This document shows, piece after piece, positions 6,516 through 40,086 of a stretch of DNA of 53,949 nucleotides. How positions within the stretch are numbered: position 1 is the stretch's first letter; every line of letters begins with the position of its first letter. The stretch is from an uncultured Gammaproteobacteria bacterium (GTDB lineage: Bacteria; Patescibacteriota; Patescibacteriia; UBA9934; GWF2-40-263). Made by a program: the position numbers and the translations under genes. A model generated the notes under the pieces. It was given only the letters and a program-made list of their open reading frames with translations, did not search any database and was not told the DNA's origin. The DNA is taken from NCBI GenBank assembly GCA_964355525.1, contig CAYHDY010000001.1, positions 1 to 53,949 on the forward strand, in the 5' to 3' direction.

Positions 6516-7220
6516 TCAAGGGAGTCGGGCGAGAAATGGTTCGATATTGATAAGATTTTTTGAAACGGAATCGGGATCAAGTTTATTGAGAATCAATGCT
6601 TCATCAACATGAAACGGTCCGATGGATGTCCGACGAAGTGTCTCAACATATCCGCCGGTTCCAAGTTTTACACCGAGATCGCGAGCGATAGATCGGATGT
6701 ATGTTCCCGAGGAACAGTGAATTGTAACTCCGATATGGGTGGGGTCTCCAGACCCCGCTTGATATTCAATCGAATAAATCGTCACATGCCGCGGCGCAAC
6801 CAACATCGGTTTCCCCTCGCGCGCAAGTTCATACAATTTTTTTCCTTGCACCTTGATCGCCGCATACGTCGGCGGCACCTGATCAATTTCTCCGACGAAT
6901 GATTTCAGTGCACTCGCCACTCCCTCCCCTGAGAGGGGGAGGGTCGGGGAGAGGGGTTGTGTAATCATTCCCGTCACATCATCCGTATCCGAACTCGCGC
7001 CCAACACAAACGTCGCTTCATATCGTTTATCAAGTCCAACCAGTTTCTGCATCTCTCGTGTCGCTTCACGCCCAACGCCAACCAAAAGCAATCCCGTTGC
7101 AAACGGATCGAGCGTGCCGGCGTGTCCGATGCGTTTCACACCCGTGATACGTCGCAATCGTGCGATCACATCGTGCGAGGTGATGCCGGCGGGTTTGTCG
7201 ATGAGAAGGAAACCGATCAT
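6516..7220 (-). CDS. truB: tRNA pseudouridine(55) synthase TruB
   Basis: GFLLIDKPAGITSHDV, HAGTLDPFATGLL and QVPPTYAAIKVQGKKLYELAREG. Start trimmed to MIGFLL. Contains a palindromic element at 6921-6956. Confidence 0.85.
   Translation of the reverse strand: MIGFLLIDKPAGITSHDVIARLRRITGVKRIGHAGTLDPFATGLLLVGVGREATREMQKLVGLDKRYEATFVLGASSDTDDVTGMITQPLSPTLPLSGEGVASALKSFVGEIDQVPPTYAAIKVQGKKLYELAREGKPMLVAPRHVTIYSIEYQAGSGDPTHIGVTIHCSSGTYIRSIARDLGVKLGTGGYVETLRRTSIGPFHVDEALILNKLDPDSVSKNLINIEPFLARLP
6921..6956. repeat. Palindromic element family C inside truB (translated on the minus strand as PLSPTLPLSGEG)
   Basis: tccctcccc-tgaga-gggggaggg-tcgg-ggagagggg. Same architecture as 24451-24486 and 32961-33030. 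Confidence 0.65.
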
Positions 7221-12261: not shown

Positions 12262-15200
12262 ATGAGTTACAATCATCAAGAAATTGAAAAGAAATGGCAG
12301 GCTCGATGGGAAGCCGACCAACACGGGCGTGTCGTCGAAACTGATTCGAACGAAAATGCCTTGTATTACCTCATCATGTTTCCGTATCCGTCCGGATCCG
12401 GTCTGCATGTAGGCCACGTGGAATCGCAAGCCGCGATTGATATTTTGGCACGCATGGAGCGTATGCGCGGAAAAAATGTGTTGTGTCCGATCGGATACGA
12501 TGCGTTTGGTTTGCCTGCGGAGAATTACGCGATTAAGACGGGTGTGCATCCTTCGGTCACAACGAAACAAGCGATTGAGAATTTTCACAAACAGATGCAA
12601 TCCCTCGGCCTCTCGTTCGATTGGTCACGCGAAATTTCTACGGCGGATCCGGAATACTACAAATGGACACAATGGTTGTTTCTCTTGTTTTATAAAAACG
12701 GTTTGGCATACAGAAAAAAATCTCCCGTGAACTGGTGTGACGGTTGTCATACCGTTCTCGCAAACGAACAAGTCGTCGCCGGCGCCTGCGAACGTTGCGG
12801 CACCATTGTGATCCAAAAAGATTTGGAACAATGGTTTTTCAATATCACAAAATACGCGGATCGTTTACTCGCAGGTCTCGACACAATCGATTGGCCGGAG
12901 AAGATTAAGTCGATGCAGCGGAATTGGATTGGCAAATCGGTTGGAGCGGAAGTCATCTTTCAACTCGCTGATGCGTCATCCCGAGCGAAGTCCGACGAAG
13001 TCGAGGGATCTTCGATTCGCATGGAAGTTGTATTCGCATCGAACAATAAAGCGAAGAAGGCGCGTATGCAGAAATTGGTTGATGCCGCTGGACTCTCGAT
13101 TCAACTGAAGACGCCCGAGGAAATCGGTATTCTTGATTTCGATGTTGTAGAGGATGGTTTGACACTCACGGAGAATTCGGAAAAGAAAGCGCGAGCGCTT
13201 TCGCATCTCACGTCACTGCCGATTCTTGCAGATGATTCCGGATTTTTTATTGAGAACAGTAAATTGGATCCGGTGAAGGTAAAACGAAATGCTCTCGACG
13301 GCGTTGACGAAAAAGAATTTTCAACGGAAGAGATCGGAAACAAGATGCTCACATATTATCAACGCATCGCCACAGATCATGGCGGTCGTGTGGATGCGGA
13401 ATGGCGAAGTTCTTTGTGTTTGATGTCGTCCGCGAAGATATTGAAACAAGAAGAAGCAATCAGACCGACGATTCTGACGAACGAACCGCACGGCATCATG
13501 GATCCGTTTATGCCGCTTCGTCCATTGTATATTTCGAAAGATACAAATAAATACGTTCTCGATCAGACGGATGAAGAAGAATTGATCGAGTTAAAACCGA
13601 TCATGGACGCACTCACACGTTTGTTCCGTCCATCGATTCGTGTTTTTACGACGCGCCCCGACACACTCTTCGGTGCAACGTATCTTGTTCTCGCACCTGA
13701 ACATCAACTTGTTGATTCAATCGTGACCGTTGAACATCGCGCAGAAGTCGAGGTGTATCGCGTCGCTGCGTCGAAGAAATCCGCGCTTGAGCGAACGGAA
13801 TTGCAGAAAGAAAAGACCGGTGTGTTTACGGGTGCGTATGCAATCAATCCTGTGAACGGTGAAGCGATTCCTGTTTGGATCGCAGATTATGTCATCACGA
13901 CATACGGAACCGGAGCGATCATGGCCGTCCCAGCACACGATGAACGAGATTTTGAATTCGCAAAAAAATATCAGTTGCCGACGAAGATTGTTGTCGCATC
14001 AAAAAGTGGGGAAGAGATCGAAGGTTTTTTTGAAGAGGGAGTCGCTGTCCATTCCGAATTTCTTAGTGGACTTTCGACAAGCGGAGCAAAACAAAAAATG
14101 ATTCAGTGGCTCGAGGAGAATCATGTCGGAAATGCGAAGACGACATTTCGTTTGCGCGATTGGCTCGTTTCACGACAACGTTACTGGGGAGCGCCGATTC
14201 CAATTATTTGGTGTGAGGAACATGGGGCACAGGCCGTCGAAGAATCACAACTTCCTGTCGAACTTCCGACCGATGTCGACTTCAAACCGACCGGCGAATC
14301 GCCACTTGTCGATTCAAAAACATTTCACGATGTGAAATGTCCGAAGTGTGGCAAAGATGCGCGTCGCGAGTCTGACACGATGGATACGTTCGTCGACTCG
14401 TCGTGGTACTACTTGCGCTATACAGATCCGCACAACGCGAAGGCGTTCGCGGATAAATCGAAAATCGATTATTGGTGTCCGGTGGATTTGTATCTCGGCG
14501 GCGCGGAACACGCGGTCATGCATTTGTTGTACGCACGCTTTTTCGCATACGCACTTCACGATCTCGGCTATCTGAATTTCTCCGCCAGAGGCGGATCCGC
14601 CTCTGGCGGAGAAGAGCCATTCTTAAAATTGAAAAATCAGGGACTCATCCTCGGACCCGACGGAGACAAGATGTCGAAGTCAAAAGGGAACGTCGTGAAT
14701 CCGGATGAAATCGTTTCCGAGTACGGGGCGGATTCGATTCGTCTCTATGAAATGTTCATGGGGCCGCTTGAAGATGCAAAACCATGGGACACAAAAGGAG
14801 TCGTCGGCGTTCGTCGTTTTCTCGATAAGGTTTGGAAATTGAAAGAAAAAGTCGCCGCCTCTGCGTCATCCCGAGCGCAGCGAAGCGAAGCCGAGGGATC
14901 TTCGAGCGAGGGGGAGATCCTTCGGGTACCTCAGGATGACGCATATGTGAACCGTCTCCTTCACAAAACCATCAAGAAAGTCACGAAGGATCTTGAAGAT
15001 CTGAAATTCAACACGGCGATCTCACAACTCATGATCGCGACGAATGAATTTTCGAGTGTGACATCGATCGAAGAGCAATCACTCGAATCATTGTTGAAAT
15101 TGCTCGCACCGTTCGCGCCGCACATTGCGGAAGAACTCTGGGGACAACTTGGACACACAACATCGATCTTCAAAGAATCATGGCCGACGTTTGATCCGAC

Positions 15201-15402
15201 ACTCATTGTCGACGACGTCATTGAAATGGGTGTGCAAGTGAATGGAAAAGTTCGCGCGACGATTCACATCGCACCGAATGCGGATGAAGCGTCGGCAAAA
15301 GAACTCGCGTTGTCTGAACCGAATGTTTTGAAATGGATTGAAGGAAAAGACATTGTAAAAATTATTTACGTTCCGGGGAAAATTTTTAACATTGTTGTAT
15401 GA
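12262..15402 (+). CDS. leuS: Leucine--tRNA ligase carrying an in-frame Ham1/RdgB-like insertion and three palindromic-element insertions
   Basis: HIGH (GLHVGHVES), Zn module CDGC...CERCG, QRNWIGKS, CP1 editing motifs TTRPDTLFGATY and GTGAIMAVPAHDERD, and KMSKS. At 1046 aa it is much longer than typical bacterial LeuRS. Confidence 0.9.
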   Translation: MSYNHQEIEKKWQARWEADQHGRVVETDSNENALYYLIMFPYPSGSGLHVGHVESQAAIDILARMERMRGKNVLCPIGYDAFGLPAENYAIKTGVHPSVTTKQAIENFHKQMQSLGLSFDWSREISTADPEYYKWTQWLFLLFYKNGLAYRKKSPVNWCDGCHTVLANEQVVAGACERCGTIVIQKDLEQWFFNITKYADRLLAGLDTIDWPEKIKSMQRNWIGKSVGAEVIFQLADASSRAKSDEVEGSSIRMEVVFASNNKAKKARMQKLVDAAGLSIQLKTPEEIGILDFDVVEDGLTLTENSEKKARALSHLTSLPILADDSGFFIENSKLDPVKVKRNALDGVDEKEFSTEEIGNKMLTYYQRIATDHGGRVDAEWRSSLCLMSSAKILKQEEAIRPTILTNEPHGIMDPFMPLRPLYISKDTNKYVLDQTDEEELIELKPIMDALTRLFRPSIRVFTTRPDTLFGATYLVLAPEHQLVDSIVTVEHRAEVEVYRVAASKKSALERTELQKEKTGVFTGAYAINPVNGEAIPVWIADYVITTYGTGAIMAVPAHDERDFEFAKKYQLPTKIVVASKSGEEIEGFFEEGVAVHSEFLSGLSTSGAKQKMIQWLEENHVGNAKTTFRLRDWLVSRQRYWGAPIPIIWCEEHGAQAVEESQLPVELPTDVDFKPTGESPLVDSKTFHDVKCPKCGKDARRESDTMDTFVDSSWYYLRYTDPHNAKAFADKSKIDYWCPVDLYLGGAEHAVMHLLYARFFAYALHDLGYLNFSARGGSASGGEEPFLKLKNQGLILGPDGDKMSKSKGNVVNPDEIVSEYGADSIRLYEMFMGPLEDAKPWDTKGVVGVRRFLDKVWKLKEKVAASASSRAQRSEAEGSSSEGEILRVPQDDAYVNRLLHKTIKKVTKDLEDLKFNTAISQLMIATNEFSSVTSIEEQSLESLLKLLAPFAPHIAEELWGQLGHTTSIFKESWPTFDPTLIVDDVIEMGVQVNGKVRATIHIAPNADEASAKELALSEPNVLKWIEGKDIVKIIYVPGKIFNIVV
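12972..13014. repeat. Palindromic element family A, left-half copy inside leuS (translated as ASSRAKSDEVEGSS)
   Basis: tgcgtcatcccgagcgaag...gagggatcttcg matches the left ends of the copies at 14862 and 28016. Confidence 0.6.
14581..14610. repeat. Palindromic element family B: 30-nt perfect palindrome tccgccagaggcggatccgcctctggcgga inside leuS
   Basis: Perfect self-complementarity. Identical copy at 39646-39675. Exactly 10 codons (SARGGSASGG). Confidence 0.9.
14862..14943. repeat. Palindromic element family A, full copy inside leuS
   Basis: Termini tgcgtcatcccgag / ctcaggatgacgca are inverted repeats (one mismatch). Internal gagggatcttcg / gagatccttcg arms. Translated as SASSRAQRSEAEGSSSEGEILRVPQDDA. 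Confidence 0.8.
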
Positions 15403-28015: not shown

Positions 28016-28121
28016 TGCGTCATCCTGAACGAAGGTTGGTGATCTGTCACAACCGAAGCTGAAGGATCTCTGTGCGAATTCGATTCGCCCGAAGATCCTT
28101 CGGCAAGCTCAGGATGACGCA
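28016..28121. repeat. Palindromic element family A, full-length intergenic copy (106 nt)
   Basis: Termini tgcgtcatcctgaacgaagg / ...caagctcaggatgacgca. Internal gaaggatct / agatccttc arms. Confidence 0.8.
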
Positions 28122-28132
28122 TGTAAAAAATT

Positions 28133-28816
28133 ATGTTCCTAACGTTATTATTTTCCTCCCTCCCTCTCGCTCTCGCCTGGATCATCGCGATTCTCTTTTC
28201 GCTTTCCGCACATGAATTTTCGCACGGGCTCATTGCAAAATTTCGCGGCGATCCGACCGCTGAGCGCGAAGGACGATTGACACTTAATCCGCTCGCGCAC
28301 TTGGATCTGTTCGGATTCATTCCGCTTTTGCTTTTCGGATTCGGTTGGGCGAAACCGGTTCCATTTAATCCGTATAATCTAAAAAATCCGAAATGGGATT
28401 CTGTTTTGATCGCGCTTGCAGGACCATTTGCAAACTTGATCATCGCAACCATTTCGGCAATCGCGTTTCGATTTCTTGTTGTGAACGGATCTCTCCCTGC
28501 AGATAATTTGCTCACGGCATTTTTATTTTTTCTCATCCTCCTCAATTTATTTCTCATGCTTTTCAACGTCATCCCGATCGCTCCGCTTGATGGATCAAAA
28601 TTATTCTTTGCGCTCTTCGATGCACCGAAGTATGAAGATCTTCGCCGTTTCGTTGCCATTCGTGGTCCGCAAATTCTGATGTTCGCGGTCCTAATTTCTC
28701 TTTTTACAAACTTTGACATCTTCTTCTTTATCAGTCGACCGGCTTATGCGGTGTGTCACGCACTGTCCGGAACAAGTTGTGAAGCCTATCAAAGTTTGTT
28801 GTTCTCTTCATTGTAA
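28133..28816 (+). CDS. Site-2 protease (peptidase M50) family protein
   Basis: HEFSHGL zinc motif, LNPLAHLD and NLIPIAPLDGSK-like NVIPIAPLDGSK. Multi-pass membrane protein. Confidence 0.85.
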   Translation: MFLTLLFSSLPLALAWIIAILFSLSAHEFSHGLIAKFRGDPTAEREGRLTLNPLAHLDLFGFIPLLLFGFGWAKPVPFNPYNLKNPKWDSVLIALAGPFANLIIATISAIAFRFLVVNGSLPADNLLTAFLFFLILLNLFLMLFNVIPIAPLDGSKLFFALFDAPKYEDLRRFVAIRGPQILMFAVLISLFTNFDIFFFISRPAYAVCHALSGTSCEAYQSLLFSSL

Positions 28817-32915: not shown

Positions 32916-32950
32916 AGCCCCGAGCGTCTTCCACGCCCGGGGCTTTTTCT
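32916..32950 (+). terminator. Intrinsic terminator of the helicase gene
   Basis: agccccg-agcgtcttccacgc-ccggggct followed by ttttc ttttt. Confidence 0.6.
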
Positions 32951-32960
32951 TTTTACGTGT

Positions 32961-33030
32961 TCCTCCCTCTCCCTTCGAGGGAGAGGGTCGGCCTGCCCTC
33001 CGAAGCCTAGGCGAAGGCGGGGGAGAGGGG
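32961..33030. repeat. Palindromic element family C, composite copy with a nested insertion
   Basis: tcctccctctccc-ttcga-gggagaggg-tcgg-[cctgccctccgaagcctaggcgaaggcgg]-gggagagggg. Confidence 0.65.
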
Positions 33031-33044
33031 TCTCGCCTGTTTCA

Positions 33045-39033: not shown

Positions 39034-40086
39034 ATGAAAAAAGATTTGATTCCAAAAAAAGTTTTAGCAGCATTTGGTTTATCTTCACCACGATCTGTAA
39101 TCATGATTGCATCCGGTTTGATTCACCAAACGTATTGTGTTGATTCGGGCAAAGATAAGTATATCATCCAGCGATTACATCCCGTCCTTGCAAGCGAGGA
39201 AATCGCGGAGGATTTTCTTGCGGTGACAAAATTTTTACACGAACAAAAATTTTTAGCGCCACAGTGCGTTCTGTCAAAAAATGGGAGCGTGTTGGTGCAT
39301 ATTAATGATTTTTCTTGGCGTGCGCAAACATTTATCGCGGGGAAAACGGTTCATCGATTGAAAAATGTGGCGATGGCAAAAGAAGCAGGAATGATTTATG
39401 CGCAATTTCATAAAACGCTTGCAGTGATTCCATATCAATTCAAATCAAAAAAAGTTTTGCACGATACGGAAAAAATTTTTGACACATTTCGAAAAACAGT
39501 TGATTCATACCGTGATTCTGAATTAATGACGGAGGTTCATTCGGAAGTTGAATTTCTTTTAAAACAGACGCCAAAGTATTTTTTACCAAAGTCACTGCCT
39601 CTCCGTGTGATTCACGGTGATCCGAAAATATCGAACATTCTTTTTTCCGCCAGAGGCGGATCCGCCTCTGGCGGAGATCGAAATGGAAAAGCGAAAGCGA
39701 TTGTTGATCTCGATACATGCAATCGACGTCCACTTCTTGTTGAACTCGGCGATGCATTTCGGTCGTGGTGTGGAGGTGTTGAGGACGATTCAAAAAATAC
39801 ATTTTCGATTCCATTATTTCGTGCTGCATGGAAAGGGTATGAATCGATTGCGAAATCATTGATAACAAAAAAAGAAAAACAACAGGTTCCGAAAAGTATC
39901 GGAACGATTACGCTTGAACTCGCATGTCGATTTATGACAGATTATTTTGCGGATACATATTTCGGTTGGGATTCAACAAGATATTCATCGCGTCGTTTGC
40001 AGAATCTTGCGCGTGTACGAGGACAGATTGCGGAGTTCAAAGATTATCAAAAAAAACAGAAGGAGATCCAAAAGATTGTTTCTTGA
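39034..40086 (+). CDS. Phosphotransferase (APH/choline-kinase family) protein carrying the family B palindrome
   Basis: Catalytic loop VIHGDPKISNILF and metal loop AIVDLDT. Confidence 0.65.
   Translation: MKKDLIPKKVLAAFGLSSPRSVIMIASGLIHQTYCVDSGKDKYIIQRLHPVLASEEIAEDFLAVTKFLHEQKFLAPQCVLSKNGSVLVHINDFSWRAQTFIAGKTVHRLKNVAMAKEAGMIYAQFHKTLAVIPYQFKSKKVLHDTEKIFDTFRKTVDSYRDSELMTEVHSEVEFLLKQTPKYFLPKSLPLRVIHGDPKISNILFSARGGSASGGDRNGKAKAIVDLDTCNRRPLLVELGDAFRSWCGGVEDDSKNTFSIPLFRAAWKGYESIAKSLITKKEKQQVPKSIGTITLELACRFMTDYFADTYFGWDSTRYSSRRLQNLARVRGQIAEFKDYQKKQKEIQKIVS
39646..39675. repeat. Palindromic element family B: identical 30-nt perfect palindrome inside the kinase gene
   Basis: tccgccagaggcggatccgcctctggcgga, 30/30 identical to 14581-14610. 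Same reading frame (SARGGSASGG). Confidence 0.9.

Follow-up and report, generated by a model that had tools for sequence, protein, structure and literature searches.

We have examined a stretch of 53,949 nucleotides, hereafter called the window, which is contig CAYHDY010000001.1 of assembly GCA_964355525.1, deposited as an uncultured Gammaproteobacteria bacterium and placed by GTDB within Patescibacteriota. The subject of this analysis is a perfect 30-bp palindrome that interrupts a kinase gene, and of which an identical copy is found in the leuS gene of the same window. A preliminary description, made from the letters alone, had drawn attention to both copies and had asked whether such elements are neutral passengers. 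The following features are found at the kinase locus.

39034..40086, plus strand: host gene, a NahK-like APH-fold kinase of 350 aa (340 aa without the insert), assigned by PF01636, Foldseek and phmmer
39613..39636, plus strand: catalytic loop HGDPKISN (H194-N201), with H194, G195, D196, P197, K198 and N201 invariant in 120 homologs
39643..39645, plus strand: left target flank TTT (Phe204), also present in the empty allele
39646..39675, no strand: 30-bp perfect palindrome (double-hairpin element), identical to its reverse complement, kinase residues 205-214
39646..39660, no strand: hairpin unit 1, TCCGCC-AGA-GGCGGA, with a 6-bp stem and a 3-nt loop, which folds alone and shows compensatory changes in variants
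39661..39675, no strand: hairpin unit 2, TCCGCC-TCT-GGCGGA, the reverse complement of unit 1
39676..39678, plus strand: right target flank GAT (Asp215; Asp205 in the empty allele)
39706..39714, plus strand: DLD (D225-D227), equivalent of the metal-binding motif, with D225 and D227 invariant in 120 homologs

The palindrome and its two copies in the window

The kinase open reading frame (ORF) matches Pfam PF01636 (E-value 1.7e-17), its nearest solved fold by Foldseek is N-acetylhexosamine 1-kinase, NahK (4wh3, TM-score 0.86, 27% identity), and phmmer matches it to 4ocu (E-value 4e-26). Having a PF01636 domain, an HGDxxxxN loop, a DxD motif and an APH fold, it belongs to the APH/NahK-like group. 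The HxDxxxxN and DxD motifs of NahK (4wh3, 4ocu) are in register with those of the window kinase, a comparison that concerns the host gene only; NahK possesses a short hairpin turn between them, as do 111 of 120 aligned homologs, whereas in the window kinase the turn is expanded by the insert.

Positions 39646-39675 read TCCGCCAGAGGCGGATCCGCCTCTGGCGGA, which is its own reverse complement. This copy is in frame, in phase 0, and reads SARGGSASGG within the protein context VIHGDPKISNILF[SARGGSASGG]DRNGKAKAIVDLDT, as the preliminary description had quoted it. The length is a multiple of three and, since the canonical 30-mer is palindromic, its stop-free reading holds for all six frames; at its edges no hybrid codon can be a stop, as can be read off the sequence. 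Hairpin unit 1 alone folds with -5.9 kcal/mol as DNA. The second copy is located as follows.

12262..15402, plus strand: leucyl-tRNA synthetase gene (leuS), host of the second copy
14581..14610, no strand: second identical 30-nt copy, in frame in leuS between ...LGYLNF and EEPFLKL...

These are the two matches to the 30-mer in the window at up to 3 mismatches, where 0 are expected (100 shuffles). The leuS copy is also in phase 0 and gives the same peptide, SARGGSASGG, so that the sequence and the ORF reading agree with the identity of frame and product first described. Both copies are preceded by a Phe codon (TTT, TTC) and followed by an acidic codon (GAT, GAA). In LeuS the insert is missing from 14 of 14 aligned homologs, which read ...NF|(D/E)EPF... 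at this point.

Empty and filled alleles of the kinase

A protein search with the kinase returned 514 homologs, belonging to Candidatus Uhrbacteria where named, of which 120 were aligned. The search for an insert-free allele, which had been proposed as a check, was answered by the best homolog (P0001), which is 96% identical to the window kinase and exactly 10 residues shorter, with a gap that coincides with SARGGSASGG. Its DNA (L115), from another sequencing run, reads ...ATTCTTTTT|GATCTAAAC... without the 30 nt, where the filled window allele reads ...ATTCTTTTT[30 nt]GATCGAAAT..., and its flanks are 92.6% and 98.2% identical to those of the window. Compared at TTT|GAT, the two alleles differ by an exact 30-nt insertion with neither target duplication nor loss, and their junction sequences make the insertion boundaries unambiguous. 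The kinase 30-mer is thus a true, recent insertion. We considered and rejected a break by recombination at this point, as the rise in identity of L115 (92.6% to 98.2%) shows no sharp step inside the kinase but takes place gradually there (94% vs 97%).

An independent assembly (ENA ERZ4201063, NODE_4966) carries the filled kinase allele and, over 6.2 kb, matches the window at 99.98% identity, which speaks against an assembly artefact. A perfect palindrome with a central BamHI site does resemble synthetic linkers, and 30 stop-free nucleotides would look "in frame" wherever they landed. Nonetheless, an artefact of assembly, library or adapter is scarcely credible here: apart from recurring in an independent assembly of the same population, the element is found in metagenome-assembled genomes (MAGs) from many laboratories, assemblers and years, is limited to particular phyla and has no match in PLSDB, INPHARED or E. 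coli genomes, and it shows non-random flanks, a frame bias, orthologous copies with diverged flanks and a decayed copy, all described below.

Position of the insert in the protein

Among the 120 aligned homologs, the length from F204 to the DLD aspartate is 10 residues in 97, 9 residues in 14 and 17-21 residues in 9, and solved NahK structures have a short turn too. The preliminary description had held that, without the insert, the spacing from HGD..N to DxD is the usual one for such kinases, and this holds: it amounts to 10 residues, as in the 97 homologs and in solved NahK. It had also allowed for homologs generally carrying a Gly-rich loop of this length, which is not what we find, 111 of the 120 having 9-10 residues.

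An AlphaFold2 model of the filled kinase, built from the 120-sequence alignment, has a mean pLDDT (predicted local distance difference test) of 94.3, with residues 208-214 as the sole segment below 50. In this model strands 202-204 and 220-223 flank the insert, which occupies the tip of the beta-hairpin connecting HGDPKISN (194-201) with DLD (225-227). The view of a discrete insertion in the hairpin between the active-site strands is therefore borne out both by this predicted placement and by L115, which differs by exactly the 30 nt. According to the model, the insert would form a flexible Ser/Ala/Arg/Gly decapeptide at a solvent-exposed hairpin tip beside the active site.

The nine long-loop homologs bear other GC-rich inserts at the same turn, such as PPARGGARGGG and SPPAKGGLGG, encoded by hairpin DNA of the C7...G7CTAG7 type (C7-N7-G7-CTA-G7). 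The expanded turn is found at L116 (~1501-2556) and L117 (579-1661) (P0022, P0036), and also in P0017, P0023, P0034, P0071, P0074 and P0077. These inserts are an independent element family hitting the same loop, and their presence in nine homologs makes the kinase turn a recurrent permissive landing site rather than a conserved Gly-rich loop.

One could suppose that the decapeptide is an adaptive addition tuning the kinase, that is, a regulatory or interaction loop by the active site recruited by selection, given that the site lies between the catalytic and metal-binding motifs and that 9 of 120 homologs have this loop lengthened by other Gly/Pro/Arg-rich inserts. Yet the identical peptide occurs in unrelated proteins (rpoB, aminoacyl-tRNA synthetases, helicases), it is predicted to be disordered and it is missing from the 96%-identical ortholog, and the recurrent loop inserts are different mobile GC-rich DNA elements, which indicates permissiveness rather than function. 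We consider such an adaptive origin very improbable. Judged by its sequence and by the structural model, the kinase copy is probably a young, near-neutral passenger in a permissive hairpin turn.

Distribution and hosts of the element

The exact 24-nt core of the element was found in at least 114 stretches of one-genome-per-species bacterial contigs. Among the core-bearing records listed, which come from many studies and assemblers, there are about 20 named lineages of the Candidate Phyla Radiation (CPR), Omnitrophota and a few other labels. The CPR labels include Saccharibacteria, Doudna-, Nomura-, Uhr-, Falkow-, Buchanan-, Komeili-, Peri-, Lipton-, Davies-, Azam-, Moran-, Zambryski-, Yanofsky-, Kaiser- and Portnoybacteria, and Paceibacteria. 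Six Omnitrophota MAGs are among these records, and for one Omnitrophota copy the host phylum was confirmed by named homologs of the host protein that are 78-86% identical. The exact element also occurs in L101 (DATGZC010000033.1), L006, L027, L037, L046, L092, L104 and L112, under Bathyarchaeia archaeon or "uncultured Gammaproteobacteria" labels that are unconfirmed.

In 941 kb of fetched DNA, 129 copies were counted, 110 of them perfect, and the ends TCC and GGA are kept in about 95% of copies. The density is low, with 2 copies in the 54-kb window and, in the fetched loci, an additional copy every ~70 kb. Lone 15-nt units are rare, five being found against ~129 doublets in the 941 kb. The host genes include rpoB (twice), the class I Ile-, Val-, Leu- and Cys-tRNA synthetases, UvrD/AddA-like helicases, recG (three times), recJ, pnp, asnB (asparagine synthase), an ATP synthase subunit (atpA/B), dus and tsaD. 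The TsaD site ...GHTEL(I/V)LM|KN... is filled in two different lineages (L005 and L059), a repeated hit.

No match to the 30-mer was found in PLSDB plasmids (7.3 Gb), INPHARED phages (2.3 Gb) or 5,426 E. coli genomes (28 Gb). A phage vector was considered and rejected, as IMG/VR holds 0 canonical cores and 2 loop variants, and INPHARED holds none. The two variants lie at L124 4886-4915 and L125 390-419 (AAA/TCA and AGA/CAA); both contigs, classed as viral and with 53-55% GC, may be CPR-host phages or misclassified cellular contigs. A full-text literature search, whose coverage omits most subscription journals, returned no description of the element, and the matches to its central 12-mer were cloning primers. 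The family seems not to have been described previously.

Some loci show the element in particular arrangements. Six double-hairpin elements are packed within 3 kb at L059 4611-7570 (a canonical copy, an AAA-loop variant and four other sequences), of which tsaD contains two (SAKGGSASGG and SPFGESPAGG), and another lies in the gene of a class I aminoacyl-tRNA synthetase. Copy pairs with identical flanks, 410 and 345 bp apart, are seen at L053 (2160 and 2570) and L054 (2134 and 2479), and are tandem duplications of an element-containing unit. Moreover, a conserved ~200-nt intergenic unit has the 30-mer as an internal stem at L025 3980-4215, L067 938-1172, L055 6450-6665, L047 4640-4850 (minus strand) and L023 7690-7910 (minus strand), that is, twice in each of two MAGs and once in a third, with neighbours that are always unrelated genes. 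RNAalifold predicts several further stems in this unit with some covariation, and no Rfam match was found in the five loci at E <= 0.01. The unit may represent some larger repeat or else a small RNA gene; nhmmer places it, a conceivable "master copy" of the element, at those five loci only.

Two-hairpin structure

Variants were retrieved by sequence similarity with at most 6 mismatches, and 16 distinct sequences were scored. Changes in the stems compensate each other in pairs within each 15-nt half, as in CCCGCC-GGA-GGCGGG TCTGCC-TCT-GGCAGA or TGCGCC-AGA-GGCGCA TCAGCC-TAG-GGCTGA. Under a two-hairpin model 97.4% of cells are paired and 6 pairs are changed on both sides, and 0 of 500 shuffles do as well; under a model of one long hairpin the figures are 88.9%, 5 pairs and 30 of 500 shuffles. 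A single long hairpin was therefore rejected as the conserved structure, being weaker than two hairpins on the variants, though it is the minimum-free-energy fold of the canonical copy.

A structural scan of 876 kb detected about 30 further non-canonical elements of the form 2 x (6-bp stem + 3-nt loop), vs 2-4 in shuffles, for example TCACCC-AAA-GGGTGA CCAACC-TCT-GGTTGG and TCCCCC-TTC-GGGGAA TCCCCC-GCA-GGGGGA (peptide SPFGESPAGG). Since the peptide varies among these elements while the hairpins are kept, the constraint acts on the nucleic acid. The order of the loops is polar, with the purine-rich AGA loop first and TCT second; the permuted palindrome is present in 3 stretches (two contexts) of JGI metagenome contigs. 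Going beyond the preliminary description, the element belongs to a large family that crosses phyla, in which two 15-nt hairpins, and not one long palindrome, are what is conserved.

Target site

In the symmetrised flanks of 118 copies, T is found at -2 in 79%, at -1 in 65% and at -3 in 52%, with the matching A on the 3' side. Among non-redundant copies, 104 of 116 (90%) have TT 5' or AA 3', where the background TT frequency is 10.6%. TT on the left and AA on the right are negatively associated (Fisher p = 1.4e-4), yet both T at -2 and A at +2 occur often; the pattern fits either a loose TT^AA target cut mid-way or a one-sided need for TT on one strand. An intrinsic terminator is ruled out by the same flanks, with the T-run 5' and the A-run 3' of the hairpin on both strands. 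The empty/filled comparisons in the kinase and in an Omnitrophota helicase (see below) reveal no target-site duplication, which argues against DDE-type transposition and would be compatible with an insertion of the HUH/Y1 type or the recombinase type.

Reading frame and fate after insertion

Of 118 copies that entered a frame test, 76 (64%) lie in ORFs of at least 120 aa. By phase these are distributed as 67/5/4, the 67 (88%) in the first phase reading SARGGSASGG, and the other two phases reading PPEADPPLA and RQRRIRLWR. When all possible insertion points in the same ORFs are weighted by flank preference, 43/20/38% are expected (chi-square p = 1e-14), and the coding fraction of 64% is below the expected 81% (p = 2e-5). 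The simplest reading of these sequence counts is that the insert would be translated, and that in proteins just the small flexible Ser/Ala/Gly version survives. The frame bias is also evidence against removal at the RNA level.

The fate of a copy can be followed in an Omnitrophota UvrD-like helicase, at the site ...HDFIF|. Here one locus (L068) has a canonical copy, a second (L126) has TCCGCCGGAGGCGGACACGCCTCTGGCGTA, with 4 of 30 nt changed and the peptide SAGGGHASGV, and a third (L127) is empty, reading TTT|AAA; the 300-nt flanks of the three are 83-93% identical. The divergence of the decayed copy is about equal to that of its flanks, so no purifying selection on the peptide or on the hairpin is detectable after insertion, and the surplus of perfect copies is thus a sign that insertion is recent and still going on, not that the element is conserved. 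In the identity of their flanks the empty and the decayed alleles go together, and therefore either the site was hit twice or one copy was lost precisely. Orthologous copies at L014 and L031, with flanks 81% identical, were not taken as evidence of selection because both loci had been picked by an exact match to the element. The question of neutral passengers is thus answered in part: coding copies have passed a frame filter, and at the one site with perfect, decayed and empty alleles the decay equals the divergence of the flanks.

These observations bear on the idea that the 30-mer is a signal useful to the host, such as a DNA-uptake sequence, a protein-binding site or a regulatory mRNA hairpin, whose identity is kept by selection and for which the decapeptide is a side effect. 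Its exact identity across very distant lineages, the strong hairpin, the polar loop order with the rarity of the permuted palindrome, and the ~200-nt intergenic unit at five loci would all suit a signal. However, the copies are insertion polymorphisms between close relatives at positions that are not conserved, divergence has been as fast in the decayed copy as in its flanks, and the density (2 copies per 54 kb, about one extra per ~70 kb) is low. In addition, uptake sequences arise via point mutation and not by clean 30-nt insertions, and the T- and A-runs are the wrong way round for a terminator. We therefore find a host signal unlikely.

Comparison with known elements

Rickettsia palindromic elements (RPE) are reportedly repeats of ~100-150 bp that lie in frame in many unrelated, often essential genes; they are said to be translated, mostly at protein surfaces, and polymorphic between relatives, to be found in Rickettsia (and relatives) only, and to diverge among copies. 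To our knowledge, in-frame palindromic elements are textbook material only for Rickettsia. The present element resembles RPE in inserting in frame in diverse genes, with 67 of 76 coding copies in one frame. It differs in being 30 bp long and stop-free in six frames, in its mostly perfect copies and in its CPR and Omnitrophota hosts, and no similarity of sequence is to be expected; by length (~100-150 bp) and host (Rickettsiales) it is not a member of RPE-1 to RPE-8. Small dispersed repeats (SDR) of heterocystous cyanobacteria are likewise said to be 21-27 nt long, some of them palindromic, with mobility recognised from empty orthologous sites. Unlike our element, SDR are cyanobacterial, mainly intergenic or nested in other repeats, and not known as in-frame coding inserts open in six frames.

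A comparable architecture is that of REPINs, inverted doublets of a hairpin-forming repeat that can adopt a stable long hairpin or a "clover" of unit hairpins (Bertels & Rainey 2011, PMC3116915). The same paper proposes that a dimeric IS200-like enzyme recognises the clover, which would be the form competent for transposition. REP sequences have a conserved GTAG or CGTC tetranucleotide at one end (PMC3733652). Our element is similarly an inverted doublet with two alternative folds and with singlets rarer than doublets. Whereas REPINs are extragenic, ~70-110 bp long with a spacer, species-specific and found near a RAYT gene, it has neither spacer nor tag, is mostly intragenic (64% in ORFs of at least 120 aa) and is identical across phyla; it starts with TCCG and ends with CGGA, and its flanks are T-rich and A-rich.

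With IS200/IS605-derived miniature inverted-repeat transposable elements (MITEs) such as PATE, the element shares the absence of target-site duplication, but PATE has subterminal hairpins with adjacent guide sequences and the hairpins of our element abut its ends. Elements of that class also insert strand-specifically 3' of a fixed tetra- or pentanucleotide, where the flanks of our element allow the two readings given above, and have a full-length parent with tnpA. With respect to classical DDE-type MITEs, the inverted ends are trivially present and the target-site duplication is absent. Mitochondrial GC clusters, or double-hairpin elements (DHE), have reportedly also been described. In fungi and sponges these are very short GC-rich mobile elements with two adjacent hairpins, as is the present one, and they invade AT-richer genomes, sometimes in coding regions (PMC2800124). 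They are organellar, eukaryotic and of other sequences, whereas our element is bacterial and chromosomal, so the likeness is architectural only. Given the length and hosts of RPE, the location and tag of REP and the duplication made by MITEs, the element lies outside each class despite its like behaviour.

Mechanism

We believe, with a probability of roughly three in four, that the 30 bp are a copy of a tiny, selfish, non-autonomous mobile DNA element and represent a translated, near-neutral insertion. The element would consist of a 15-nt GC-rich hairpin followed by its own inverted repeat, so that both strands read alike. Its insertion, recent and without duplication, would have taken place in a Candidatus Uhrbacteria genome, between the codons TTT and GAT of a gene for a NahK-like kinase. 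It would then be transcribed and translated along with its host gene, the decapeptide being tolerated at the hairpin tip. Genic copies would persist just in the benign frame and in permissive loops, and after insertion copies would decay at about a neutral rate or be lost. By analogy with what is proposed for REPINs with RAYT, or for IS200/IS605, we tentatively suggest, as a rather doubtful extension, that the element may move as single-stranded DNA (ssDNA) in its two-hairpin fold, and that an HUH/Y1-type enzyme able to recognise hairpins may act in trans to excise and reinsert it.

Several points weigh against this account. No transposase, RAYT or other mobilising gene was identified, and no genome-wide search for one was made; the TnpA of IS200/IS605 uses guide sequences, for which the 15-nt hairpins at the ends of the element leave no room, and the GTAG/CGTC tag of REP is absent. 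Being identical across phyla, unlike species-specific REP, the 30-mer needs frequent horizontal spread or a shared conserved source; neither has been identified, and the count of canonical cores in IMG/VR viral contigs is 0. The canonical copy is most stable as one long 13-bp hairpin (-17.5 kcal/mol as DNA, -28 as RNA), and the support for the two-hairpin form is solely covariation in a small variant set. Translation is deduced from the frame bias. The flank-based phase expectation was learnt from the same, mostly phase-0, sites, a bias of the flank profile that makes the frame test conservative.

An insertion without a dedicated transposase, by templated repair or replication (fold-back, template switching) or by ligation of a hairpin oligonucleotide at T/A-rich breaks, would account for the missing target-site duplication, for the perfect palindrome, which fold-back copying of a 15-nt unit would give, for the existence of single 15-nt units and for the lack of any transposase seen near the copies. 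Yet the presence of the same 30-mer at more than 100 unrelated sites in many phyla needs a constant donor, of which none was found, and the covariation within halves indicates heritable lineages selected for hairpin formation, as is typical of elements recognised by an enzyme. Such an origin therefore appears improbable to us.

Returning to a mobile element, a bolder version is that the family forms an undescribed superfamily of 30-nt "coding-safe" double hairpins, spreading horizontally among unrelated ultra-small bacteria (CPR/Patescibacteria, Omnitrophota and perhaps others) by means of a new or repurposed hairpin-specific ssDNA enzyme and continually seeding flexible loops in essential proteins. 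We regard this as a possibility to be entertained, at somewhat below even odds.

Other features of the window

A second family of GC-rich in-frame inserts, starting with GCGTCATCCCGAGCG, is found in leuS at 12973-13015 and 14863-14943, and also at 28017-28120 and 28566-28580, with 5 window matches at up to 2 mismatches vs 0.07 expected. The longer leuS copy has the inverted repeat GGATGACGC at its end and reads SSRAQRSEAEGSSSEGEILRVPQDD. In total, leuS holds three small elements, the 30-mer and two of the second family. Within the 28017-28120 copy, positions 28074-28103 form a further double hairpin of 2 x 15 nt, perfect and unrelated in sequence, GCGAAT-TCG-ATTCGC CCGAAG-ATC-CTTCGG. At 13027-13431 (leuS residues 256-390) a Ham1p-like domain (ITPase, PF01725, E-value 1e-10) is inserted upstream of the editing domain.

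Short islands of G-runs and C-runs, e.g. CCCCTGAGAGGGGGAGGGTCGGGGAGAGGGG, are seen at 6926-6956 and 32917-33039, in a style like the C7/G7 inserts of the kinase homologs. The window contains no Rfam family at gathering thresholds and no tRNA or tmRNA. Enrichment of the HIP1-like motif GCGATCGC was set aside as weak, with 6 occurrences observed vs 2.2 expected and 4 of 100 shuffles reaching 6.

Biological meaning

An element far smaller than RPE acts likewise across a radiation that holds a large share of bacterial diversity, and beyond it. With the same decapeptide placed in dozens of essential enzymes, and with filled, decayed and empty alleles for comparison, it offers a replicated natural insertional scan, in which the kinase copy by the active site is one of the sharpest cases of protein tolerance. 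The element accounts for some of the puzzling short insertions rich in Gly/Ser/Pro/Arg that CPR proteins show, and the family systematically brings noise into the alignment and annotation of MAGs. The identity of the 30-mer across phyla implies that uncultivated symbiotic bacteria widely share a mobilising activity or a vector, and the element could serve to mark recent gene flow and strain-level population structure. If the superfamily exists as supposed, it would be a major source of lineage-specific insertions in CPR proteins. The chief value of the kinase copy is that it leads to a widespread and apparently undescribed family of mobile double hairpins that are compatible with coding.

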